A stretch of 10,995 bases of DNA from a virus. Taxonomy: Duplodnaviria; Heunggongvirae; Uroviricota; Caudoviricetes. Below, piece by piece: positions 1 through 10,995 of this stretch. The stretch's first letter is position 1; each line of letters begins with the position of its first letter. The stretch spans positions 1-10,995 of IMG/VR virus record IMGVR_UViG_2579778784_000010; one strand, given 5' to 3'. The notes beneath the pieces are model-generated. The model saw only the letters and a program-made list of their open reading frames with translations. It was not told the origin of the DNA and did not search any database. The position numbers and the translations under genes are program-made.

Positions 1-420
1 ATGACGGATTATCAGCCATACAGGAAAGGAACTGTGCTTGCCCCAACAGGGCCATGCAATCATCTTCATGTGATTTGTAATGATCCTGTTTATTACCCCG
101 TTAACGATTGTTATTGTGTTTTAGTTGTTAATATTTCTAGTATCAAGGATGGTGTCCCCCACGATCCGTCTTGCGTCTTGAATTCTGGTGATCATCGCTT
201 TATCAAGCATCCAAGTTATGTTGTTTACGCTGAAGCTATAATTTGGCGAGTGGATAACATGGTTAGAAAGCAGCGATCGGGTGAGATTTCTGTTCATGAT
301 GATATGCCAGAAGCTACATTCAATAGAATTCTGGACGGTTTTGATATATCTGATGAAGTTACGCCAAAGAACCTTAAATTTAAAAATAAATATTGCGTAT
401 CATCTATTGATGATGAGTAA
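1..420 (+). CDS. AT-rich accessory gene; MazF/PemK-like (Kid/CcdB fold) putative endoribonuclease toxin, 139 aa
   Basis: ORF starts with ATG at window position 1 (true start or an upstream partner gene may lie outside the window); TAA at 418-420. By-eye alignment to E. coli MazF is colinear: CYCVLVV vs CLCVPCT, CVLNSG vs VVLSG, AIIWR vs SIAWR, C-terminal PEATFNRILDGF vs PEELQLIKAKINVLIG. Very AT-rich with rare codons (AGA, AGG, ATA), unlike neighbouring genes. No search run. Confidence 0.45.
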   Translation: MTDYQPYRKGTVLAPTGPCNHLHVICNDPVYYPVNDCYCVLVVNISSIKDGVPHDPSCVLNSGDHRFIKHPSYVVYAEAIIWRVDNMVRKQRSGEISVHDDMPEATFNRILDGFDISDEVTPKNLKFKNKYCVSSIDDE

Positions 421-459
421 ACAACAGGAATTTTTTCGGTATAGCTTCTGGAGTTTTCT

Positions 460-633
460 ATGGAAGATCAAAAAGCAACCAAGCCACAGGTTAAGTTCGA
501 CACAATGAAAGCATTCGCAGGTATGGGGGCTGCTGTTGAAGTTCTGATGAAGGCTGCTCCTAATGCGTTCACTCACGCTACTGTCTCTGGTAAAGAGCAG
601 CAGGGTAAGCTTCGTCGTCGCAAAGTAGCATGA
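460..633 (+). CDS. small hypothetical protein, 57 aa, basic C-terminus (KLRRRKVA)
   Basis: ATG at 460 preceded by GGAG (450-453) with 6-nt spacing; TGA at 631-633; host-like codon usage; immediately followed by a strong intrinsic terminator. Below the length cutoff of the supplied ORF track. Family not recognised. Confidence 0.45.
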   Translation: MEDQKATKPQVKFDTMKAFAGMGAAVEVLMKAAPNAFTHATVSGKEQQGKLRRRKVA

Positions 634-652
634 TCATAGCTGGTGCTTTTTG

Positions 653-681
653 AAAACCCGCCTTTAGGCGGGTTTTTTCTT
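653..681. terminator. bidirectional Rho-independent terminator
   Basis: Perfect hairpin AAAACCCGCC-TTTA-GGCGGGTTTT (653-676) followed by T-run on plus strand; the complement gives a UUUU run for the minus strand. Sits between convergent genes (stops at 631-633 and 681-683). Confidence 0.65.
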
Positions 682-962
682 TAGTGATGTTCTTTGCCCT
701 TCTGTTTGCCTGTTCTGACCTGTTCCCACTCGATACGTCCTTCTTCTCGTCTTTTGTCTATGTATTCCGCAAGATCCTGAATATTGATGCAACGTTTTGC
801 TTTTTGTGATGTGCCGATGCGATATGTTGGAACGGGCAACTTACAAGCGTTTGCTTTTGCTTCTGCCGTGGCTGGACTCATGCCAAAGTACTTTTGGCTA
901 ACTGCTGAGAGTTCAATGTTAGGGGTATTGAATTCAGCCATCAGTAAAAACAAGGTGTTCAT
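681..962 (-). CDS. PrtN-family (pyocin-activator-like) DNA-binding protein, possible excisionase/regulator, 93 aa
   Basis: ATG at 962 with GGAGAAAATT upstream; the ORF track extends to a GTG at 989 with no good RBS. Motif FGMSPATAEAKANACKLPVPTYRIGTSQKA...DLAEYID matches my recollection of the PrtN family. TAA at 681-683 abuts the terminator. Confidence 0.55.
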   Translation of the reverse strand: MNTLFLLMAEFNTPNIELSAVSQKYFGMSPATAEAKANACKLPVPTYRIGTSQKAKRCINIQDLAEYIDKRREEGRIEWEQVRTGKQKGKEHH

Positions 963-998
963 AATTTTCTCCATCAAAACCGGCTGCACCCGGGAAAA

Positions 999-1571
999 TC
1001 ATAATTCTGTGCTGGTGGCAGGAATTAATTTCTGCCAGATAGCGGAAACATATTTTGCCTGATGACGGGCATCGGCCAGGGCGTTGTGCCGTTCGCCATC
1101 GAAAGGCATGTCTATTTTGGGGTCGAATCCGATGGAACGCCCAAGCGTAACGATCGTGCGTACATCGTGGTCATTCCAGTATGCCCACGGGCAGATTTGT
1201 CCTGCTCGCTCATAAGCTCCACGTAAAATTACGTTGTCGAAGGTGGCCCCGTTACCCCAGACTTTTAAATATTTCGTATTGGCTGCGTGCCGGTTAATGA
1301 AATGATTTAGTTCTGAGAGAGCATCGCTGATCGACAAAGTATCATCAATACAGATTGCAGCTCGTGCTTCAGGGCTTTGTTTCAACCACCACAGGATGGT
1401 ATCGCCGTCAGGTGTAGCTCCTTGCCCCATAGCACTTTCCAGGCTAACAACCGTATAGAATTCTTGTCCGATGTCTCCGGTTTCTGGAGTGAAGAACACC
1501 GCGCCAATGGAAACGATCGGTGCATCCTTATTTTTCCCCATCGTCTCAAGGTCGATCATTAAGTTGTTCAT
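999..1571 (-). CDS. DnaQ-like DEDDh 3'-5' exonuclease, 190 aa
   Basis: Exo motifs: IDLETMG (Exo I), WGNGATFD (Exo II), HNALADARHQAKY (Exo III). ATG at 1569-1571 overlaps upstream TGA (ATGA coupling), with GAGGTG RBS; track alternative is GTG at 1574. Confidence 0.75.
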   Translation of the reverse strand: MNNLMIDLETMGKNKDAPIVSIGAVFFTPETGDIGQEFYTVVSLESAMGQGATPDGDTILWWLKQSPEARAAICIDDTLSISDALSELNHFINRHAANTKYLKVWGNGATFDNVILRGAYERAGQICPWAYWNDHDVRTIVTLGRSIGFDPKIDMPFDGERHNALADARHQAKYVSAIWQKLIPATSTEL

Positions 1572-2386
1572 CACTTCACCTCTTGTGATGGTTTTGCTGC
1601 AAAATACTCGATACCTTTATCCCAGATAGATTTTATGGTCGACCACGTGACTGGCACTTTAATTTCAATACGTCCGCTCCCGTCACAGGTATCGCAATCA
1701 TCATCGCCAAAGCATTCCAGGCAGCTTATAAACGTAGTTTCTGAAAATTCACCGGATAGCACCCCCTTAGCGCCGTTCTCGGCTGTTAGTCTCTTCGGCA
1801 CCATAACCCAACCATCCGGAGTTACCGGAGAGTTGCCAGACAGTGCGTTCTGCAATCGTTCCAGCTTAACGTATTCCTGAACCCTGTTTCCGTCGCACGC
1901 CTGAAGCCATTGCACAGCCTTTTGCGCATCAGTGTGAAAGGCACAAGTGCGACCGTCATCAAATTGCATTTCGTAGAGGTCAGCAACCTGTTTAAACTGC
2001 GTTTGTGGCAACTTGTAAGCCCGGCTTGCAGGTACGGCACTATAGAGCATGGCAGCGCGGCAGGCATTCCAGCCTGTAGCGTATGCAGCCGCTTTGCTGC
2101 TGCCTTCAACTGGCGCATCCTGCCAATACATTTCTTCCGGCACTACCGGCGCTGGAGGGACAGTGTAAAGCTGGTGCGTTCCATCAGGCAGCGAGTGACC
2201 TACATACTCACCGAACCCGTCAACACACATGCTCCCATCTTCAATAATGCATGACGCTACTGGCTCCGCTTCCAGCGATGCCAGAGCAATTTCATAAGCC
2301 CGGCGCTCAATATTGTCTCGAACGTCCAGGCTGCCTATGCGTTCTTTGATTTCTTTAATCATTTCTTTGTCGGTTAAAGTTGTCAT
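1571..2386 (-). CDS. hypothetical phage early protein, 271 aa, with C-terminal Cys cluster (possible zinc ribbon)
   Basis: ATG at 2386 with GAGGA RBS; C-terminus CLECFGDDDCDTCDGSGRIEI has CxxC...CxxCxGxG spacing. Coding-like codon usage; operon context. Confidence 0.6.
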   Translation of the reverse strand: MTTLTDKEMIKEIKERIGSLDVRDNIERRAYEIALASLEAEPVASCIIEDGSMCVDGFGEYVGHSLPDGTHQLYTVPPAPVVPEEMYWQDAPVEGSSKAAAYATGWNACRAAMLYSAVPASRAYKLPQTQFKQVADLYEMQFDDGRTCAFHTDAQKAVQWLQACDGNRVQEYVKLERLQNALSGNSPVTPDGWVMVPKRLTAENGAKGVLSGEFSETTFISCLECFGDDDCDTCDGSGRIEIKVPVTWSTIKSIWDKGIEYFAAKPSQEVK

Positions 2387-2389
2387 GTG

Positions 2390-2677
2390 TTAGTCCTCAT
2401 CCACTTCAACGCCATCTTTCAGCGTGATGCCGTGCCAATCATCAGCCCAACTGGTTAGCCCTGGCGCATCAATGCTAGGCATATAAACGCTTGCAGTGTG
2501 GTAGCCCTTATCGTTATCAATGCTGGCAACGTGCTCGCCGTTGTATGCGCTCAGCGTGTCCAGGACGCTATAAAACTTTCCTCCGGCTGCCCTGAAATCC
2601 TTTACAGCCTTCACAAGGCGATTCCACGCTTTTTCCTGTTCTGGCGTCAGGTCGATTAATTCCTGCAAAGTTGCCAT
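2390..2677 (-). CDS. hypothetical phage early protein, 95 aa, acidic C-terminus
   Basis: ATG at 2677 preceded by AAGGAG (8-nt spacing); TAA at 2390-2392; 3-nt gap to the next gene. Confidence 0.6.
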   Translation of the reverse strand: MATLQELIDLTPEQEKAWNRLVKAVKDFRAAGGKFYSVLDTLSAYNGEHVASIDNDKGYHTASVYMPSIDAPGLTSWADDWHGITLKDGVEVDED

Positions 2678-2678
2678 A

Positions 2679-3173
2679 TCACTCTCCTTTGATGCGAATG
2701 CCAGTGGTACTCATTCTCCTGATTTCCCAGAGCACACGAGGAACACCACCGTTTCCGACCGGATCGCGTTTACTCCGCAGGGCGACGCTTGATTCCGCCC
2801 AGCTTTTTCTTGGAGGAAGCTCTTTCACACGAACAAAACCAGCTGCGCGAAGAGATGCTCCTGATTCATCTGCCTGGGTGTACGTAATACAACGTTGATA
2901 ACCCATAGCCTTTGCTGCCCGCCAGACAGCACCATAAAGCGCGCTGTTAGCGTTGCGTTCTCCTGTGGTACATGTGCGATTTACTTCAAGCGTTAATCCA
3001 TCGTCCAAATGTCGTGCAACAGGTCGACCAGCTGTCGCCACACCTATCAATTCTCCGGCATTATTTCTCAGACCAATGCTGAATTTATGCCCCACTGGTG
3101 GTTTATTGTGTCGGTGGTGCTGTGCGATAAATTCCTGCGCCGCTTTCAGCGTTATAGGTGAAATGACCATCAC
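2679..3173 (-). CDS. hypothetical phage early protein, about 163-164 aa
   Basis: Start GTG 3173 or ATG 3170 (ATGA overlap with upstream stop), AAGGAGG upstream; TGA at 2679-2681. Family not recognised. Confidence 0.55.
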   Translation of the reverse strand: MMVISPITLKAAQEFIAQHHRHNKPPVGHKFSIGLRNNAGELIGVATAGRPVARHLDDGLTLEVNRTCTTGERNANSALYGAVWRAAKAMGYQRCITYTQADESGASLRAAGFVRVKELPPRKSWAESSVALRSKRDPVGNGGVPRVLWEIRRMSTTGIRIKGE

Positions 3174-3706
3174 TCAGACTCCTCCTTGATGCCAGCGGCG
3201 CGGGAATCATTCCATCGCTTTACTTCTTCACGAATTACGTCAATGCATTCTTTCGAATCCATTAGGTAATCTTCATCAAAAAGACGTTCCTGTTCGTTTT
3301 CTATCGCAACAATGATTGCTTCAACTAATTTTTGTGCCTGAGAATCACTTTCTAACTCTGCAATGCGCTTACTCCCATCCGAGATAACACCTTCGTAATA
3401 CACACGCTGCTCGTTGAGTTTTGATTTTGTCTCCTCAAGCTCAACTCTCAGCTTCCCTACCGTTAGCGCAATATCCTCGTTCTCCTGGTCGCGGAGTTTG
3501 ATGTATTGCTGTTTTTCGTCCAGCTCATCCAACAGCCCGGCGATAATGTCCACTTCCCGATGACGGATTTCTCGCTTAAACGCCGCTAAAGCTGCATCAC
3601 AATCCTGTTCAGCGTTTGGACTGTCTGGCTTTTCCTGATACCACGCCAGAGTCGATTGATAGTTTTGTGCTGCCTTACGCAACGCCTGATAGTCAATCTC
3701 GCTCAC
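3170..3706 (-). CDS. coiled-coil early-left protein, possibly Ead/Ea22-like, 178 aa
   Basis: GTG at 3706 preceded by AAGGAGG (6-nt spacing); the longer track ORF (to 4054) has a junk-like N-terminus overlapping two other genes. Sequence rich in E/K/L/Q heptad-like segments. Family assignment from memory only. Confidence 0.5.
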   Translation of the reverse strand: MSEIDYQALRKAAQNYQSTLAWYQEKPDSPNAEQDCDAALAAFKREIRHREVDIIAGLLDELDEKQQYIKLRDQENEDIALTVGKLRVELEETKSKLNEQRVYYEGVISDGSKRIAELESDSQAQKLVEAIIVAIENEQERLFDEDYLMDSKECIDVIREEVKRWNDSRAAGIKEESE

Positions 3707-3941
3707 TGGTGCCTCCTTTACGGATCTGCGCTGCGATGCACGAAAAAAAAGACTCTCGCGTATGACAGTTAAGAGCTGGTGCGAACGCCGCGTTAAGAAC
3801 GGCGGCATCACAGCCGTCATCAATATAGAGCGCAATTTTTTTCTCCAGGCGCGCTTTGGCTTCCTGCAACTGCATACCCCGGCACGCACGCGGGATATAC
3901 TCAGCAATTTGAGCGATAGATTTTTCGTTCTGTTTAAACAT
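3693..3941 (-). CDS. hypothetical small phage protein, 82 aa
   Basis: ATG at 3941 with GAGGTG RBS; good codon usage; overlaps the downstream gene by 14 nt; contains an A8/T8 homopolymer (3743-3750). Confidence 0.5.
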   Translation of the reverse strand: MFKQNEKSIAQIAEYIPRACRGMQLQEAKARLEKKIALYIDDGCDAAVLNAAFAPALNCHTRESFFSCIAAQIRKGGTSERD

Positions 3942-4137
3942 GCTTCACCTCGATAGGCTTGATGGTATCGATCAGCAGTCGGCGGCGAGTATTTTCTGCA
4001 AAGTGGCGGCGTCCGGTTTCTTTGTGGTAAAACTCGTTTTTTCCGACGACCCACATCCGCTTTGTCTGGTGCAGTTTTTTTACCTGCGGACCGTCTCGGG
4101 TGATAACAATTCCTGTATGAGTTTTTATCACGCTCAT
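3934..4137 (-). CDS. hypothetical small basic phage protein, 67 aa
   Basis: ATG at 4137 with GGAGAA RBS; 8-nt overlap with the next gene; operon context. Confidence 0.45.
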   Translation of the reverse strand: MSVIKTHTGIVITRDGPQVKKLHQTKRMWVVGKNEFYHKETGRRHFAENTRRRLLIDTIKPIEVKHV

Positions 4138-4496
4138 TTTTTATTCTCCGGTGCTTTCGGCATTACTGCCCAGTGAGTGATATTGACGTTTTCAAGGTCC
4201 CCGACCTGAAATGTCCACTGCCATTCTCCGGTTTCTTTTTGTCCCCAGGTGTACCAGAGAGAACGCCAGCCAATTAGCCAGCCTTCTCCGTTAGCATCAA
4301 ATAACAGAACACTTTCATTTGCTGGCGGCAGTTCAGCTGACACTGGTATTATTTTGTTTTCCAGTGCCGCACATTTAGCTTCAAGCGCATCGAATTTACG
4401 TACCAGGTACTCAGCATTTGTTTCATTCACTTTCAGATCTCGTGGTACACATTTCCCGCGAAGAAACCCTTCCATTTCGAAAACATTCATGCGCAT
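4134..4496 (-). CDS. yfdS: YfdS-like phage protein (DUF551-type as I recall), 120 aa
   Basis: Tryptophan-rich C-terminal segment (GWLIGWRSLWYTWGQKETGEWQW); length equals K-12 YfdS (120 aa) and it sits directly after the YfdR-like gene as in CPS-53. ATG at 4496 overlaps the YfdR-like stop. Symbol by recalled synteny and length, not by search. Confidence 0.6.
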   Translation of the reverse strand: MRMNVFEMEGFLRGKCVPRDLKVNETNAEYLVRKFDALEAKCAALENKIIPVSAELPPANESVLLFDANGEGWLIGWRSLWYTWGQKETGEWQWTFQVGDLENVNITHWAVMPKAPENKK

Positions 4497-5023
4497 GTGC
4501 GTAACTCCGATAACTCGTTAAAGCGCTCCATAAACATCCCGTAGGCATGGCTCGGAGCCAGTGGAATAACTTTGAACATTTCTGTTGCCGGGATACCTTC
4601 CAGTACTGGCCAGAAAGAGCCATCATCAAGCCCGAGATCGCGGCGTTCGGTTGCCAGCATGATGAGATCGGCATATTTCACAGGCGTGCTCATAACCGGG
4701 GGTAACCCGTATTTCTCACGGATTACGGCGTCTATTTTTTCTTCCATCCGTTTATAGTCAGGAAGAAGGCGTTTCAGTGGAGCGGGAATGTCCTGGCAAT
4801 ACGCTTCTGTTGCATCATGCATTAACGCTTCAAAAGCAAATTCCTGCGGCACCAGCTGGCTGCAAAGCACCGCATGCTGGGCGACACTGTAGAAGTGTGA
4901 AAGATGTCCTGCAAAGCGACAGATATTTGAAAGGGAAACCGCGATATCGTTAATCACGATGTCGTCTTTATTTATCTTGTCATAATAAAAATGCTTCCCG
5001 GAAAAAGTTTTAATAAATGACAT
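4487..5023 (-). CDS. yfdR: HD-domain phosphohydrolase, YfdR-like (5'-deoxynucleotidase family), 178 aa
   Basis: ATG at 5023 with GGAGAA RBS (the track ORF starts further upstream at 5086). HD signature (H...HDATEAY...D). 178 aa equals K-12 YfdR. Confidence 0.7.
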   Translation of the reverse strand: MSFIKTFSGKHFYYDKINKDDIVINDIAVSLSNICRFAGHLSHFYSVAQHAVLCSQLVPQEFAFEALMHDATEAYCQDIPAPLKRLLPDYKRMEEKIDAVIREKYGLPPVMSTPVKYADLIMLATERRDLGLDDGSFWPVLEGIPATEMFKVIPLAPSHAYGMFMERFNELSELRTCA

Positions 5024-5151
5024 TTCGTTCTCCACTTTATATGCGCTGCACCGCGCTGAATTCGGGTAAAAGGAATCCCGCACCATCCGGCGATTATTGA
5101 GTTAATTACGTTTCCATAAATGCCCCCGCAGGGGCATTTGCAGTAATGAAA

Positions 5152-5976
5152 TCAGGCGGTGAAAGTACCAATAAAGGTTTCTACTTTGCTGTCTTTGAAT
5201 TTCTCAACAAGCAGATCACGAAATTCGTTAGCCATTTCTTCCTGCACTGCTTCCAGCTGAATAATGCGCAGAACCAGTACAGGACGATCGCCAGTGATAA
5301 CGCTGAGGCGTAATTTAAATGGACGTTCTTTCAGACCTTCAAACGGAACGCATTTAAATTCAAATGCCACTGGCATAATATCTTTGGTTTTCGCTTCGAC
5401 AGACTCCATCAGGGAGCGTTTGCCGCTGAAGTCATTATCTTCAAAATCAGCGGTCTGGTTTGCTTCAATCGTGATTTTACGGACAGCCGCAGCCGCTTTT
5501 GTTGCCTGAATAGCGTCACCATTAGCATCAAAGCCCACAAGGTAGTCGGCCCAGTCTTCAATCCATTCTGCCAGTGACTTCTGGGAATGACGCTCGCCGT
5601 TAACAGACAACAGAGCAGAGAACGGTGCTGTCTTTTTCAGTTTGAGAGTGGCGGTGTTATCTGCGTGACCTGGTTCATCAATAGTACCCAGGTTAAGTAC
5701 ACTGACGGCACGCATATTATCAGCATCGATAAAGCAGCGGGTGCCTTCATCTGCAAGATCTTTAGAATAACGGGTAAAGTCATCGATGCTGGCAGTGGAA
5801 AGCGCACCACGGAAACGGAAGCGATTTAAATTAAATTTTTCCAGATCATGAATGAGGAAATTCTCGGGCAATGCCACAGCATCGGCACCAATCTTACTGA
5901 TAATTTCATTAACACCCTGAGCAGAAATAAGGGCATGGATTTGATTAATTGCGGTTGCGTCTAAGTTCTGAGACAT
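5152..5976 (-). CDS. yfdQ: YfdQ-like protein (DUF2303-type as I recall), 274 aa
   Basis: ATG at 5976 with GAGGA RBS; TGA at 5152-5154. 274 aa equals K-12 YfdQ; position between the YfdP-like and YfdR-like genes matches CPS-53. Confidence 0.7.
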
Positions 5977-6041
5977 AATAAGTCCTCACTATATAAAGAT
6001 ATTCAGTGATGAGATAAATAATCAGTTAATTAAGAACGATA

Positions 6042-6404
6042 TTAATGACCTGCTGCGCGTAGTTTTCCGTCAGGTTCACCGGCAAGAGTCAGTAATTGTC
6101 CCTGGTCTTCCTGCAGAATAGTCAGACGACCACCGCGATTGACATACATCGGCGTTTCGGTGGTGTCTTCTTCGGAAATTTTCCCGCGGTTAGTCGGGCG
6201 AACATATGAGAGTTTGTGTTTGATTTTCACACGGTTCTCATCAAATGGTTCGATTTCCAGGTTGAGTGAGACCTTACCTTTGGTTTTCGTGTTCATCACA
6301 CCGGAAGCGACTTCACTGAGAACTGCGCCGATTTTGGTTTCAAATACGCCGCCGTCCAGCTCCCCGATAAATGCCTGCACATCAGTACTGCGTTCGCTAG
6401 CCAT
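6042..6404 (-). CDS. yfdP: YfdP-like protein, 120 aa
   Basis: ATG at 6404 with GAGGAG RBS 7 nt upstream. The 226-aa track ORF extends upstream through GC-rich non-coding sequence and a terminator hairpin, so is rejected. 120 aa equals K-12 YfdP. Confidence 0.6.
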   Translation of the reverse strand: MASERSTDVQAFIGELDGGVFETKIGAVLSEVASGVMNTKTKGKVSLNLEIEPFDENRVKIKHKLSYVRPTNRGKISEEDTTETPMYVNRGGRLTILQEDQGQLLTLAGEPDGKLRAAGH

Positions 6405-6872
6405 TTTGCTGCTCCTCATCATATCGACCCTGCAAGGTCGGTTGGTTTCTCCACAAAACAGAGAAGAACACCTGCGGTGGCAGCCGCCCGGATGGATTGG
6501 GTTATGAGCCCGTCGTCCGGTGATGCTCTTCTCTGTTTTGTAAAAAGAGCGGTACCAGCCGGAAGCAAGGGTACAAGCTGGTACCGCCAGGACTACACAC
6601 AGCATAAAGTTGTGGTGCCGGGTGCCTCCCGGTGCCTGGCGAAGGTTGCACACCAGGCGGGTGGGTATCCACAGAAGGTCGACTGTCAGCCTCAACCTTA
6701 ACCCGCGTGCGCTGAGCCGCATTCACCACAACGCTAAGGATTCTCTCTGGTTGAAAATACTTAGCTGTTATGTGCCTGCTTTTAGCCACATCAGGCGAGG
6801 TGGGCCTGGTTATTCCCCAACAACAAGGATTCGGCTAATCTGGATGACTCTGTTCTTAGAGGGGATAATTAA
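6405..6872 (-). other. GC-rich structured untranslated leader of the early-left operon (candidate regulatory RNA region)
   Basis: No ORF with a credible start or RBS; open in several frames at once (GC-rich). Perfect 15-bp inverted repeat 6453-6467/6527-6541, 11-bp inverted repeat 6549-6559/6577-6587, and adjacent short hairpins at 6628-6660. Confidence 0.4.
6541..6587 (-). terminator. intrinsic terminator in early-left leader (tL-like)
   Basis: Minus-strand RNA: GCGGUACCAGC-(17 nt loop)-GCUGGUACCGC followed by UCUUUUUA; about 140 nt upstream of the YfdP-like start. Confidence 0.45.
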
Positions 6873-7385
6873 ATGGGAGCGATTTATGTTAAACGTTTGA
6901 TTCTGTCGGTAGCACTGATAATACCGATAGCATCCAATGCTTCTGATGCTTTGAACCAGCCGAGCAGTAGTCTAAATGATGGTGTTGAGACTTTTTTTAT
7001 TTCCTGCTTTGATATGCCTCAGGAAACAACTACTGATATGGACGCTTGTCAGAGAGTTCAGTTAGCTCAGGTTAGTTGGGTTAAGAATAAGTATTCGGTG
7101 GCCGCCCTGAATCGTTTGAAACAAGACAACAAGGATGATCCACAGCGTCTGCAGGAATTAACTGCTTCTTTTAACGCGGAAAGTGAAGCTTGGACAGAAT
7201 TAATTGAGAAAGCGTCAAAGTCCGTCCAGGTTGATTATGCAGGAGGAACTATAGCTGGCACTGCAGTTGCATCACGTCAAATTGGTCTTCTGGAATTACA
7301 ATCCCACGATATCTGGGAGCACTGGCTACGATTCGAGGACTCAACTCCTCCTCTTTTGCCAGAACCAAAGTTCAAATCTGAGTAA
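6873..7385 (+). CDS. secreted DUF1311/LprI-like (YecT-like) protein, 170 aa; opposite-strand moron
   Basis: ATG at 6873 with AGAGGGG upstream. N-terminal signal peptide (KR, hydrophobic core LILSVALIIPIA, ASNA/SDA cleavage-like site), two Cys, then W...Y...DYAGGTIAGTAVASR...DIW pattern I associate with DUF1311. AT-rich with rare codons; own terminator downstream. Confidence 0.65.
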   Translation: MGAIYVKRLILSVALIIPIASNASDALNQPSSSLNDGVETFFISCFDMPQETTTDMDACQRVQLAQVSWVKNKYSVAALNRLKQDNKDDPQRLQELTASFNAESEAWTELIEKASKSVQVDYAGGTIAGTAVASRQIGLLELQSHDIWEHWLRFEDSTPPLLPEPKFKSE

Positions 7386-7410
7386 TAAGTCATCCAGATT
7401 GTTAAAGAGC

Positions 7411-7436
7411 GAAGCGTCCTATAGGGCGCTTTTTTG
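7411..7436 (+). terminator. Rho-independent terminator of the moron
   Basis: Hairpin GAAGCGTCC-TATA-GGGCGCTT followed by TTTTT, about 25 nt after the TAA at 7383-7385. Confidence 0.55.
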
Positions 7437-7594
7437 TTGCTAACGAATCATCCTGGACTTCATATGCCCCAGGCGGCTACTTCGTGGTCGTCCTGACTGT
7501 TCGTTTTTGACATTTACTGACCGCTTACGACACATGCACCATGCACCGTGTTGCAACCAGATTTTGTTGTAATCCTGTAGTTGGTCTGGAACAA

Positions 7595-7623
7595 AAGATA
7601 AAATTAAAATGCGAGATGTGCAA
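7595..7623 (-). promoter_or_regulatory. PL-like leftward early promoter
   Basis: On minus strand: -35 TTGCAC (complement of 7618-7623), 17-nt spacer, -10 TATCTT (complement of 7595-7600); the -35 lies inside an operator repeat. Confidence 0.35.
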
Positions 7624-7646
7624 GCAATATTTTGCGAGATGTGCAA
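7609..7646. promoter_or_regulatory. OL-like operator pair
   Basis: Two copies of a 15-bp pseudo-palindrome, ATGCGAGATGTGCAA (7609-7623) and TTGCGAGATGTGCAA (7632-7646), sharing an identical 14-bp core and fitting TTGCG-N5-YGCAA; the same half-sites recur at OR. Confidence 0.5.
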
Positions 7647-7656
7647 AATGATGGGT

Positions 7657-7682
7657 GATAAAAAGCCACCTTTCGGTGGCCG
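7657..7682 (-). terminator. intrinsic terminator downstream of cI
   Basis: Minus-strand hairpin GCCACC-GAAA-GGUGGC followed by UUUUUA, about 20 nt after the cI stop (7701-7703). Confidence 0.5.
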
Positions 7683-7700
7683 ATGGATGGGATATTGAAG

Positions 7701-8393
7701 TTAATTATGTCTCTTAAGGGTTTGCGACTGACTGATTAAGACCTTTCCAAAGACCATGAATCGGTGTTCGTTTTCGCTAGTAATTCCCCATTCACGGTAA
7801 ATCTGGTTATCAGAAATCACCAGCAGTTTGTCAGGAATCATTTGAAGTCTTTTAACGTATATTTTGTCATCAAAACCAAAGACATATATACCATCACCAT
7901 CAAACTGATTGATGCTGACATCAACGAAGATGAGATCTCCTGGCTCAATGGTTGGACACATACTGTCCCCACGAACGTTGATAACTTTGATGTGATTGGC
8001 TGGTCGTCCGCCGAACATTGATACAGCATTATCAGTTCTGTATTCGATGGCATGAATCACATCAATGACATCACCGCCCTGGATAAGGCCATTTCCCGCA
8101 CTGGCACTGATATCCAGCATTTCAATACGGAACACATCCTTCACCTGCGCAACATCCTCATCATTACTGTTTTTATATACAGTATTACTTTTGAGGGCAG
8201 AGGTAAAGAGATCAGCAATATCAACACCTAAGCTCTTGGCAATATTACTCAGTGTTTGTTCGGTAAATTGTTTCTGCTTACCCGTTTCTAAGCGCGAGAT
8301 GTTCGCCGCATCTACTCCTATTGCTTCAGCGAGATCGGCGATTTTCATGTTCTTCGCTTGGCGAAGTTGTCTGACTCGGTTTCCTATGTTCAT
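7701..8393 (-). CDS. cI: cI-like prophage repressor (XRE-type HTH plus S24 LexA-like peptidase), 230 aa
   Basis: N-terminal HTH (IADLAEAIGVDAANISRLETGK); C-terminal S24 motifs GDSM (Ser) and YVKRL (Lys); Ala-Gly candidate autocleavage site (SASAGNG). Divergent from the cro-like gene with operators between. ATG at 8393 has no SD. Confidence 0.85.
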   Translation of the reverse strand: MNIGNRVRQLRQAKNMKIADLAEAIGVDAANISRLETGKQKQFTEQTLSNIAKSLGVDIADLFTSALKSNTVYKNSNDEDVAQVKDVFRIEMLDISASAGNGLIQGGDVIDVIHAIEYRTDNAVSMFGGRPANHIKVINVRGDSMCPTIEPGDLIFVDVSINQFDGDGIYVFGFDDKIYVKRLQMIPDKLLVISDNQIYREWGITSENEHRFMVFGKVLISQSQTLKRHN

Positions 8394-8399
8394 GCGTTT

Positions 8400-8428
8400 A
8401 TTACATTTCTTTATTGCGTGATAAGCAA
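8400..8428 (-). promoter_or_regulatory. PRM-like promoter for leaderless cI transcript
   Basis: Minus strand: -35 TTGCTT (complement of 8423-8428), 17-nt spacer, -10 TGTAAT (complement of 8400-8405) ending 6 nt before the cI ATG, so transcription would begin at or next to the start codon. The -35 overlaps operator 8414-8428. Confidence 0.4.
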
Positions 8429-8476
8429 ATCAACTTGCGCAAAACACTTGCGTGAAATAACATGCATAACGCGCAA
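8414..8476. promoter_or_regulatory. OR-like operator region
   Basis: TTGCGTGATAAGCAA (8414-8428), palindrome TTGCGCAA (8435-8442), ATGCATAACGCGCAA (8462-8476); same TTGCG/CGCAA half-sites as OL. Confidence 0.45.
8435..8463 (+). promoter_or_regulatory. PR-like rightward promoter
   Basis: -35 TTGCGC (8435-8440), 17-nt spacer, -10 TAACAT (8458-8463); followed by GGAGGG RBS and the cro-like ATG at 8491. Confidence 0.35.
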
Positions 8477-8490
8477 TATTTGGAGGGTAT

Positions 8491-8751
8491 ATGCAATCAC
8501 CATTACGAAATGTGCGTAAGGCGCATGGTTTCACTTTGCAGCATGTTGCTGCGGGTGTTCAAGTCAATCCAGCGACGTTGAGTCGTATTGAGAGGCTGGA
8601 ACAGATTCCATCTATCGAGCTTGCAGAACGTTTAGCCAATTTTTTTAAGGGTGAAATCAGCGAAATGCAGATTCTTTATCCGGCACGTTTTCAATCTAGC
8701 CAAAACCAGAATGGGTTTAAACCACAGGAACAGGAGGTGAACCGTGGGTAA
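8491..8751 (+). CDS. cro: Cro-like HTH (XRE family) regulator, 86 aa
   Basis: First gene rightward of the operator region, divergent from cI; HTH segment FTLQHVAAGVQVNPATLSRIER; GGAGGG RBS. Confidence 0.65.
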   Translation: MQSPLRNVRKAHGFTLQHVAAGVQVNPATLSRIERLEQIPSIELAERLANFFKGEISEMQILYPARFQSSQNQNGFKPQEQEVNRG

Positions 8752-9295
8752 GCATCACTGGAAAGTAGACAAACAGCCTGAGTGGTTCGTGAAAGCTGTC
8801 AGAAAAACTATCGCAGCGTTGCCTGGGGGTTACGCTGAAGCTGCTGACTGGCTGGATGTAACAGAGAACGCATTATTTAACCGCCTTCGTGCCGATGGCG
8901 ATCAGATTTTCCCGCTGGGATGGGCAATGGTTTTACAGCGTGCTGCTGGCACTCACTACATTGCGGATGCTGTCGCACAGTCTGCTGGTGGGGTGTTTGT
9001 ATCGCTTCCTGAAATTGAGGAAGTAGAGAACGCAGATATAAACCAGCGCCTGCTGGAAGTCATCGAACAGATCGGGAGTTACTCAAAGCAGATTCGTTCG
9101 GCAATCGAAGATGGGGTAGTGGAGCCACACGAGCAGACAGCAATTAATGATGAATTGTATCTGTCAATTTCGAAGCTCCAGGAGCATGCGGCACTGGTCT
9201 ACAAAATTTTCTGCGTTCCAGAAAAGAGTGACGCCCGCGAGTGTGCAGCTCCGGGCGTCGTGGCGTTTTGTGTCTGTGGAGAAACTAACGCATGA
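8744..9295 (+). CDS. CII-like regulatory protein (phage 186 CII / CP76 type), 183 aa
   Basis: GTG at 8744 with AGGAGGTGA RBS, overlapping the cro-like stop. Segment TENALFNRLRADGDQIFPLGWAMVL resembles my recollection of 186 CII (NVQTLRNKLNPEQPHQFTPPELWLL). Position after cro fits. Confidence 0.55.
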   Translation: MGKHHWKVDKQPEWFVKAVRKTIAALPGGYAEAADWLDVTENALFNRLRADGDQIFPLGWAMVLQRAAGTHYIADAVAQSAGGVFVSLPEIEEVENADINQRLLEVIEQIGSYSKQIRSAIEDGVVEPHEQTAINDELYLSISKLQEHAALVYKIFCVPEKSDARECAAPGVVAFCVCGETNA

Positions 9296-10128
9296 ACAGT
9301 TTAACGGCAAATAACCGTTTGTCGCAACAGCTGGTGGTCAGTGTCGCTGCACACCTGTTGTTACGGCATGAATGCAGATTACCAAATCACCTGGCTGTAA
9401 GTAACCACAGAGAACTTTACCTGACTGTGGGGGGCGAGTTGTGCAGGAACTTAACCGCTGGTTTCGTGACGGAAGAGGACTTTATGTTCATGTTATTCGT
9501 TGGGAGCCAGAAACACAGCGCGTTATCTATCTTCGCAAAGACTACCCGCATGAGTGCTTTAGTCCTTTGTGGAAATTCAGGCGTGATTTTGTTGAGTGTG
9601 AAGGACCACCAGCACATTGATTCTGCCATTCCGGGACGTTACACTGTTCAGGCACCTTATAAAGCGGGTGCCGGGATTGGCGTCCTGGAAATGTTATCGG
9701 CGATATATGACGCGCCAGCGTCTTTTTTATCGTCTGCGTCTGCGCACACCCAAATTATGGTGGGCTGGACGGGGGCACTGAAAGGTGCGCCGGTTTCCGA
9801 TAACGCCGGTTACGCCAACCCCGTTCAGTTCACCACCAGCGAAATTGGCGTTTCCGGTGGTGAAGGTAATTCACTGTTATCGGAGGCTGCCATCATGGCT
9901 ACTGTCCCAGCCCTCACTCGTCTGAATGATGAAGACTTACATAAACTCAGTTATGTAACAACTGCACTACGTGCTCTGCGCAAGGTAACTCTTTCGGATC
10001 CGCAGGCGCATCAGGTTCTGGTAGAAACCCTTCTTAACTTGCAGGCTGAACGTATCCGTTTGGCGGATAAGGCTAATTTTCATATTCACCGTCTCCTGAA
10101 TATCAGCGGAGGGCATCGTCATGCTTAA
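9292..10128 (+). CDS. hypothetical protein, 278 aa (N-terminal third of doubtful coding quality)
   Basis: ATG at 9292 overlaps the upstream stop (ATGA) with GGAGAA upstream. From about 9620 the codon usage is clearly coding-like; upstream of that it is poorer, and an alternative frame (9441-9620) is also open. Confidence 0.45.
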   Translation: MNSLTANNRLSQQLVVSVAAHLLLRHECRLPNHLAVSNHRELYLTVGGELCRNLTAGFVTEEDFMFMLFVGSQKHSALSIFAKTTRMSALVLCGNSGVILLSVKDHQHIDSAIPGRYTVQAPYKAGAGIGVLEMLSAIYDAPASFLSSASAHTQIMVGWTGALKGAPVSDNAGYANPVQFTTSEIGVSGGEGNSLLSEAAIMATVPALTRLNDEDLHKLSYVTTALRALRKVTLSDPQAHQVLVETLLNLQAERIRLADKANFHIHRLLNISGGHRHA

Positions 10129-10357
10129 TCCGTTGATCCTCAATATTTGCCGTTTGCTTCAGCGCAAAAAAACATCAATTCCTACAGTTGGGCAGTGGTA
10201 CACCACGCCTGCAGGGCATGTTCTACGTGTTAGCCTGGTTGACCGTGAATGTCAGAAGGTGGTTTGTGAACCGCTGGGCCGTAATTACCGCGTCAGTATG
10301 CCGCTTATAGCCTTTCGCTCCGGAAAAAACATGAAGCATCTCGGAGGTGCAGCATGA
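10121..10357 (+). CDS. hypothetical small protein, 78 aa (possibly DUF4222-like)
   Basis: ATG at 10121 with GGAGGG RBS, overlapping the upstream stop; its stop overlaps the next start (ATGA). Family guess is weak. Confidence 0.45.
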   Translation: MLNPLILNICRLLQRKKTSIPTVGQWYTTPAGHVLRVSLVDRECQKVVCEPLGRNYRVSMPLIAFRSGKNMKHLGGAA

Positions 10358-10995
10358 GTATGGAGCTGATGGTTAAAGCGATGAAAATTCGAGTGGGTAA
10401 TCCATTGCGAAAACTGGTTCTGATCAAGCTGGCTGATAATGCCAGCGATCAGGGTGAGTGCTGGCCCAGCTACCAGCATATTGCTGACCAGTGCGAGATT
10501 AGCAAACGTTCTGTGATGAATCATATTGCGGCCCTTTGTGAGTCCGGGCTGGTAAAAAAAGTCACCCGGAAAGGTGAAAAAGGTAACTCAAGTAATATCT
10601 ATCTCCTTCATCTTGATGGTGCAGGAGATTCACTAGGGGGTAGTGCAAATAATTCACTATCTGGTGCAGCAAATTCACCAGGTAGTGCAGGAGTTGCACC
10701 AGGGGGTAGTGCAGGAGATTCACCCAGAACCAGTCACTCTTTTGAACCAGTCAAAGAACCAGTCAATGAACCAATAGCTGTTGGTGCATCTGCTGATGAG
10801 TCTGTGCGAGTTCGTTCAAACCGACCGGAATACTCTCCGGAGTTTGAGCAGGCATGGCTGGCCTATCCCAAACGTGCTGGTGGCAATTCAAAATCTGCAG
10901 CCTTCAAAGCCTGGAAAGCCCGTTTGAATGAGGGGGTAAACCCCGAAACCATGCTGGAAGGTGTGAAACGCTACGCGGGCTGGGTATCTGCGATG
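10354..10995 (+). CDS. replication initiator, lambda-O-like (3' partial; continues past window end)
   Basis: ATG at 10354 with GGAGGTG RBS. N-terminal winged-helix-like segment (PLRKLVLIKLADNASDQGECWPSYQHIADQCEISKRSVMNHIAALCESGLV) resembles the lambda O N-terminus; Gly/Ser/Ala-rich linker is encoded by direct repeats, as with lambda ori in O. Confidence 0.65.
   Translation, partial: MSMELMVKAMKIRVGNPLRKLVLIKLADNASDQGECWPSYQHIADQCEISKRSVMNHIAALCESGLVKKVTRKGEKGNSSNIYLLHLDGAGDSLGGSANNSLSGAANSPGSAGVAPGGSAGDSPRTSHSFEPVKEPVNEPIAVGASADESVRVRSNRPEYSPEFEQAWLAYPKRAGGNSKSAAFKAWKARLNEGVNPETMLEGVKRYAGWVSAM
10618..10777 (+). repeat. iteron-like direct repeats inside the O-like gene (candidate replication origin)
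   Basis: About five imperfect 21-24-bp repeats with core GGTAGTGCAGGAGATTCAC (10618-10725), then four 11-bp repeats GAACCAGTCA(A) (10726-10777). Confidence 0.55.

Follow-up and report, generated by a model that had tools for sequence, protein, structure and literature searches.

A PanA-PanT gene pair, probably a toxin-antitoxin module, in a cargo slot of an Escherichia coli dusA prophage

The stretch of viral DNA examined here (Caudoviricetes; IMG/VR virus record IMGVR_UViG_2579778784_000010, positions 1 to 10,995), which we call the window, is 10,995 nucleotides long and opens exactly on the ATG of a 139-amino-acid open reading frame (ORF). An earlier note, made from the letters of the window, had read this ORF as a MazF-like gene, possibly part of a toxin-antitoxin module with a non-canonical partner. 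We found that it is the second gene of a pair whose first gene, lying almost entirely outside the window, encodes a Panacea-domain protein. We put at roughly 0.8 the probability that the ORF is PanT of a type II PanA-PanT module, in which PanA would sequester a MazF-fold toxin that blocks translation, and which is carried as prophage cargo. The features at this end of the window are listed below, with coordinates upstream of position 1 also given for the locus L001.

Positions 1 to 420, plus strand: panT, encoding the 139-amino-acid probable toxin of PanT cluster T6, with a predicted MazF/Kid/CcdB fold; its ATG (1-3) overlaps the TGA of panA (2-4).
Positions 1 to 4, plus strand: the last bases of panA, whose body lies upstream (L001 7432-8004, equivalent to window -568 to 4), with an ATGA start/stop overlap.
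Positions 1 to 446, no strand: the right-hand part of the cargo cassette (1,210 bp as a whole, L001 7237-8446), from blastn of L001 against L035, L036 and L037; homology to the mEp460/O157 backbone resumes at 447.
Positions 460 to 633, plus strand: orf57, encoding a small basic phage-backbone protein of phrog_2741 (E = 2e-35), with its own GGAG ribosome-binding site.
Positions 652 to 677, no strand: an intrinsic terminator (hairpin stem of 11 bp), shared by panAT-orf57 on one side and, on the other, the early-left operon at its xis end (terminator scan and two-strand folding).
Positions 681 to 962, minus strand: an excisionase of the PrtN/phrog_1300 family, the first gene of the convergent early-left operon (PF11112, E = 4e-23; phrog_1300; RefSeq).

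The gene directly upstream of the 139-amino-acid ORF is annotated in RefSeq as a 190-residue 'Panacea domain-containing protein' that ends at window position 4, and its TGA, read from the sequence, overlaps the ATG of panT by 4 bp (ATGA). Its product matches the Pfam model SocA_Panacea (PF13274, DUF4065) with an E-value of 1.8e-18 (67.9 bits, against a cut-off of 25.7), and Pfam shows no domain in it besides Panacea. The translation contains the GPV motif, as KFGPVM, and begins MFCEEKVAQ. Since the body of panA lies upstream of window position 1, the antitoxin had seemed to be missing simply because the window starts too late to show it. The statement that no MazE-like antitoxin is visible in the window is therefore right in that the real partner is not of the MazE kind, and it misses an antitoxin gene that does exist and reaches window position 4. 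Pfam thus gives this partner no AbrB or ribbon-helix-helix (RHH) domain of the kind borne by MazE, PemI or Kis. The suggestion of a toxin-antitoxin module with a non-canonical partner is thus borne out by the upstream Panacea-domain gene.

The two genes stay together over a wide range of bacteria. A scan of GTDB species genomes gave 26 panT loci, to which protein look-ups added more, and in 32 of the 32 related loci for which upstream DNA was available the immediately preceding gene, in the same orientation, encodes a PanA homolog. The pair spans Gamma-, Beta- and Alphaproteobacteria. At the panA/panT junction most Gammaproteobacteria have the 4-bp ATGA overlap, and the Alpha- and Betaproteobacteria have a gap of 3-27 nt. 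The contexts of the pair are mutually unrelated–for example, an Enterobacter prophage carries it flanked by tail genes, and Shewanella in an integrase island–and it is also present in phages of Yersinia, Vibrio, Pseudomonas and Klebsiella. In the Pseudomonas phage Sirocco, PanT is 48% identical to the E. coli prophage PanT and the two PanA proteins are 46% identical. As a two-gene module, panA-panT is both conserved and mobile.

To size the toxin family, we searched its profile against 1.84 billion cluster representatives (50% identity). The family has 2,974 members among these at E ≤ 1e-3, of which 1,203 are at E ≤ 1e-10; because it is represented by so many clusters, the 139-amino-acid ORF is a real gene. 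The PanT T6 family has no Pfam model. RefSeq starts the toxin (WP_014640052.1) at GTG 34, which gives a product of 128 residues. Homologs keep residues 1-11 (Pro6 and Gly10 among them), and other genomes show the ATGA overlap as well, so the ATG at window position 1 is the real start and the protein has 139 residues. Forms truncated at the N-terminus are common among database entries of the family (108-residue and 128-residue forms). In Sirocco (OR683410) the gene for the 132-residue PanT homolog (L038 1486-1884) is unannotated, and a 44-residue antisense coding sequence (1741-1875) is listed instead.

PanA/PanT systems were defined, and their toxins clustered, by Kurata et al. (2022, PNAS, PMC8832971). 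Cluster T6 of their Dataset S1 contains proteins from Salinivibrio socompensis (WP_025672779.1) and 'Yersiniaceae bacterium 2016Iso4' (WP_101821906.1), as well as entries from Proteus, Pantoea, Pluralibacter, Halomonas and Beggiatoa (PMC8832971). It also includes the Pseudomonas moraviensis protein WP_083201923.1, one of nine experimentally validated PanTs (PMC8832971). Our family profile identifies the first two as homologs of the E. coli protein (P0167 = WP_025672779.1, E ~1e-46; P0119 = WP_101821906.1, E ~1e-59), and since both are T6 entries the E. coli PanT family is the T6 cluster of Kurata et al. The family member in P. moraviensis BS3668, SDU72800.1 (P0247), which is presumably WP_083201923.1, shares 43% identity with the E. 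coli protein in an ungapped alignment of 120 residues (E = 6e-34). The P. moraviensis PanT is toxic in E. coli and neutralised by its PanA, and the PanT:PanA complex was recovered in a pull-down; the toxin specifically inhibits incorporation of 35S-Met, not of thymidine, and HHpred groups it with EndoA/PemK/MazF (PMC8832971). Kurata et al. added the N-terminal extension MIFSEQKVAQ to the P. moraviensis PanA (PMC8832971), and Sirocco PanA starts with this identical sequence. The accessions of the E. coli proteins are not among the entries listed from the Kurata et al. supplement, nor are the T6 and P. moraviensis toxin accessions among those listed from the supplement of Ernits 2023. The idea that this is a divergent module of a new type does not hold, as the toxin falls in a published PanAT cluster with an experimentally validated member.

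We predicted the structure of the 139-amino-acid protein with AlphaFold2, using 38 homologs, and obtained a confident model (predicted local distance difference test, pLDDT, 93.4; predicted template-modelling score, pTM, 0.86). All of the top 50 Foldseek matches are MazF or Kid, and among viral structures (BFVD) the best matches are PemK-like proteins. The predicted structure has the SH3-like barrel of the CcdB/MazF fold; what it adds to MazF is a long, structured loop at residues 48-71 and a pair of helices (84-93 and 122-131). Searches with sequences and profiles gave nothing significant: Pfam PemK_toxin (PF02452) does not match the protein or 38 close relatives; among 105 diverse relatives there is a single PF02452 match (E = 0.11, not significant); hidden Markov model profiles searched against all PDB chain sequences did not find MazF; and hhalign comparisons to E. 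coli MazF, to B. subtilis EndoA and to a five-member MazF/Kid/ChpBK profile returned probabilities below 1%. For this reason the kinship with MazF is drawn from the predicted fold and the published HHpred grouping. The colinear alignment with MazF across four motifs, made by eye in the earlier note, holds at the level of fold but was not reproducible at the level of sequence, and the structure prediction that it called for places the protein in the MazF/Kid fold.

Conservation was computed on 105 diverse representatives of the family that have 25-49% identity to E. coli PanT. His21 is present in all 105, as is Ser or Thr at position 72. Asp55 and Tyr76 are each kept in 104/105, His65 in 103 and Cys58 in 102, and Ser or Thr occupies positions 47 and 117 in 103/105 each. 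His23 and Cys26, which are invariant in the enterobacterial members, are not kept family-wide. Every family-invariant residue is retained in the E. coli prophage PanT.

MazF uses a catalytic Arg (R29 in E. coli MazF, R25 in B. subtilis MazF) and a catalytic Thr (T52 and T48, respectively). In the strand register of the model, His21 is at the start of strand 2, in the place of the MazF catalytic Arg, Ser47 is at the end of strand 3, in the place of the Thr, and Tyr76 aligns with MazF Gln77. We infer that the active site may occupy the MazF positions with different residues, judging from the secondary-structure register only. The substitutions of Arg29 by His and Thr52 by Ser that had been proposed from the letters fit this register, with His21 in every one of the 105 proteins and Ser or Thr at position 47 in 103 of them; as a register argument they are plausible. 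The strong constraint on these positions, as opposed to degeneracy, points to an active enzyme whose chemistry would be altered. Asp55, Cys58 and His65 have no counterpart in MazF, and the pattern of His21, Asp55, Cys58 and His65 resembles a metal-binding or Cys/His catalytic set.

There is also a reading in which the T6 PanTs are a distinct enzyme on the MazF scaffold, with a metal or Cys/His centre (His21, Asp55-x-x-Cys58...His65) that would hit a component of the translation machinery; the cassette would be an abortive-infection defence in which Panacea senses incoming phage, and the slot beside attP a hotspot for defence genes. We regard this as rather unlikely. Unlikely, too, is that PanT is a CcdB-like poison of gyrase or replication, or some other effector that is not an RNase. 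The fold it shares with CcdB would allow this, but MazF and Kid outscore CcdB as structural matches and fill the whole Foldseek top 50, and the validated T6 homolog blocks protein synthesis and not thymidine incorporation (PMC8832971).

The genomic setting of the pair is a phage cargo slot. Over window positions 1-700, E. coli K-15KW01 and five further complete genomes match the sequence with 100% identity. This segment has a match in 565 of the 5,426 complete E. coli genomes, with at least 80% query coverage in only 205 of them. By blastn, backbone shared with related phages covers L001 7159-7236 and begins again at 8447 (window 447); the 1,210 bp between (L001 7237-8446, window -763 to 446), which comprise panA-panT and the region upstream of it, are therefore a swappable cassette. 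At the corresponding place in phage mEp460 (L035 2685-3487) and in E. coli O157:H7 (L036, about 2695-3497) there is an alternative cargo gene of 177 residues (mEp460_023 / WP_000956557.1), which matches nothing in Pfam or NCBIfam and might itself serve in defence or addiction. The phages Lys8385Vzw and SKA5 carry an identical cassette, in the order int (minus strand), attP, panA, panT, orf57, terminator, xis (minus strand). The suspicion that the first gene was independently acquired cargo has thus proved correct, given a sharp-edged cassette that is replaced by an unrelated gene in sister phages. The gene is also AT-rich, as had been noticed, with a GC content of 38.3% (0.31 at third codon positions, GC3) against 47.7% in the rest of the window; dips to about 40% GC occur in other stretches of the window as well.

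In K-15KW01 the prophage is integrated into dusA, at the 5' end of the gene. A 5' fragment of dusA (encoding ...RFSIAPMLD...) lies to the left of the cassette (L001 7115-7190), an equivalent dusA remnant is annotated in O157, and a tyrosine integrase and an intact dusA are found ~38.6 kb away (NZ_CP016358.1 3027213-3029436; L039 12214-14437), with panA at NZ_CP016358.1 2989993-2990565. This position agrees with the known family of dusA-specific integrases (PMC4482086). Within this dusA prophage of ~38.6 kb, the variable slot that holds the cassette as cargo lies between attP and the orf57/xis end. The prophage combines lambdoid early genes with genes for a contractile tail (sheath, tube and baseplate).

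Conservation of the cassette bears on whether the pair is a decayed or non-toxic remnant, which we consider quite improbable. Some predicted PanTs were non-toxic when tested, and RefSeq shows a shortened product of 128 residues. However, neither ORF is disrupted, the inducible or sequenced phages SKA5 and Lys8385Vzw carry identical copies, the pair is 99-100% conserved over about 200 complete E. coli genomes, and the family-invariant residues are retained.

It is very improbable that PanA works as SocA does in the type VI SocAB system, as a protease adaptor that hands the toxin to ClpXP. SocA bears the same Panacea domain, and Kurata et al. point out that sequestration and SocAB-like modes need not exclude each other (PMC8832971). 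Nevertheless, PanA scores only 13.4 bits with the SocA equivalog model NF047745, for which the cut-off is 190, PanT is unrelated to SocB, and the P. moraviensis pair was stable in the pull-down (PMC8832971).

Downstream of the pair, orf57 follows panT on the plus strand after a gap of 39 nt. The description of its product as a small basic protein stands (net charge about +6, phrog_2741); it is probably helical, and a model made from the single sequence has three short helices at low confidence (pLDDT 68). Its codon usage had been called host-like, which we do not find: its GC content is 48.3% and its GC3 0.40, similar to the phage backbone, compared with a GC3 of 0.48-0.60 in flanking host genes. 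Using window 430-680 as the query, we found orf57 in 562 E. coli genomes, always beside xis, with partial-coverage matches starting at query positions 18-21; the toxin is present in 205. In phage mEp460 and O157 prophages orf57 is present without the toxin, behind the unrelated 177-residue gene. No orf57 homolog adjoins the pair in any of the 37 other panAT loci that we fetched, so the arrangement occurs only in the E. coli element. The breakpoint between cassette and backbone (446/447) falls between panT and the ribosome-binding site of orf57.

We conclude that orf57 is an unrelated backbone gene adjoining the toxin-antitoxin module and not part of it. As a candidate antitoxin it is ruled out by its distribution and by the cassette breakpoint, and with this the implied role of the 57-residue protein as partner of the toxin falls away. 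That the 139-residue protein and orf57 are a functional pair, with orf57 as a small antitoxin or third component, is extremely improbable: the two genes are on the same strand, with no terminator between them, and are probably co-transcribed, and three-gene PanAT architectures exist (PMC8832971), but orf57 is far more widespread than the toxin, is preceded by other cargo in mEp460 and the O157 prophages, is set apart from the toxin gene by the 446/447 breakpoint, and has no homolog at the other panAT loci. It may be co-transcribed with panAT, and its place beside xis and attP is one in which it might have a role in recombination directionality or lysogeny.

The hairpin at 652-677 is GC-rich and is followed on the plus strand by a U6 tract. 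Beyond it lie minus-strand genes, the PrtN-family excisionase (xis, 681-962/989) and then a 3'-5' exonuclease (exo, 999-1574). With the plus-strand pair facing the minus-strand xis and exo, the two units are therefore convergent, as the earlier note had said. The panAT pair is read in the lysogen orientation, and this shared terminator parts it from the convergent early-left operon. The earlier note had called it a strong bidirectional terminator. Its folding is stable on the plus strand (-19.6 kcal/mol, z = -3.4) and on the minus strand (-18.1 kcal/mol, z = -4.6), but a canonical U-tract is present on the plus strand only, and the terminator scan called 652-677 on that strand only. Rfam returned only sub-threshold terminator look-alikes. 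As the minus-strand U-tract is weak, early-left transcripts that read through during induction would run antisense to orf57 and panT; that this could shift the balance between antitoxin and toxin is purely speculative.

In the PanA-PanT reading that we favor, panA would be translationally coupled to panT through the ATGA overlap. By analogy with the 43%-identical validated homolog, PanA would bind PanT directly and hold it inactive, and free PanT would arrest growth by blocking protein synthesis. On the predicted MazF/Kid scaffold, PanT would act most probably as an endoribonuclease. Other prophage toxin-antitoxin systems suggest that the module may defend the lysogen against other phages, by abortive infection with Panacea as the sensor, or stabilise the prophage.

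Several points weigh against this reading. The case for RNase activity comes from the predicted fold, with no link to MazF in sequence, and CcdB, which poisons gyrase, has this fold too. The catalytic Arg is absent and the Asp/Cys/His set is foreign to MazF, so the chemistry could differ. A single promoter-like site lies upstream of panA, no better than expected by chance, and neither inverted nor direct operator repeats were found there. PADLOC gave no informative match for PanA, PanT or orf57 (nor did NCBIfam), and the defence role is drawn purely from analogy. Toxicity and neutralisation of the E. coli pair are extrapolated from the 43%-identical homolog only, and the identity of SDU72800.1 with WP_083201923.1 is presumed from their shared genome and family. 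Several predicted PanTs were non-toxic in E. coli in the experiments of Kurata et al. (PMC8832971).

Systems of this kind, the cluster to which the toxin belongs and one validated member had been published before. What is added here is new but an incremental step: this particular E. coli prophage member, the cargo slot in which it lies and the corrected annotations. For some 200 complete E. coli genomes and several sequenced phages, a pair of genes labelled 'hypothetical proteins' can now be recognised as a module of a Panacea antitoxin and a MazF-fold toxin that presumably inhibits translation. The RefSeq start should be the ATG (139 residues) and not the GTG (128 residues), and the toxin gene of Sirocco lacks annotation. 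The cargo-exchange slot on the attP side of dusA phages is a handy place to seek more prophage defence or addiction genes.

Among known systems, the closest comparison is with PanA-PanT of P. moraviensis. Its locus was scored as 'NotPhage' (PMC8832971), whereas the E. coli pair is in the cargo slot of a dusA prophage. The two toxins differ at the motif that reads HLHVIC in E. coli and HLHIVM in Pseudomonas (Cys26 is not kept), and the C-terminus of the E. coli protein is 7 residues longer. Compared with MazF, PemK and Kid, PanT has only 8-17% sequence identity and no match to PF02452 or to MazF profiles; by the register, His replaces the catalytic Arg, and the loop 48-71 with Asp55, Cys58 and His65 and the helices 84-93 and 122-131 are additional. 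Its partner is a globular Panacea protein, unlike the AbrB or RHH antitoxins of MazF-type toxins, which have a disordered C-terminal tail. From CcdB it differs in having no CcdA partner, in that its homolog hits translation and not DNA synthesis, and in being structurally nearer to MazF and Kid. The likeness to SocA-SocB, the type VI system of Caulobacter, is in the Panacea domain (PF13274) of the antitoxin; the SocAB toxin is unrelated to PanT, PanA fails the SocA equivalog model (13.4 bits compared to 190), and the validated homolog points to direct binding of the toxin by PanA.

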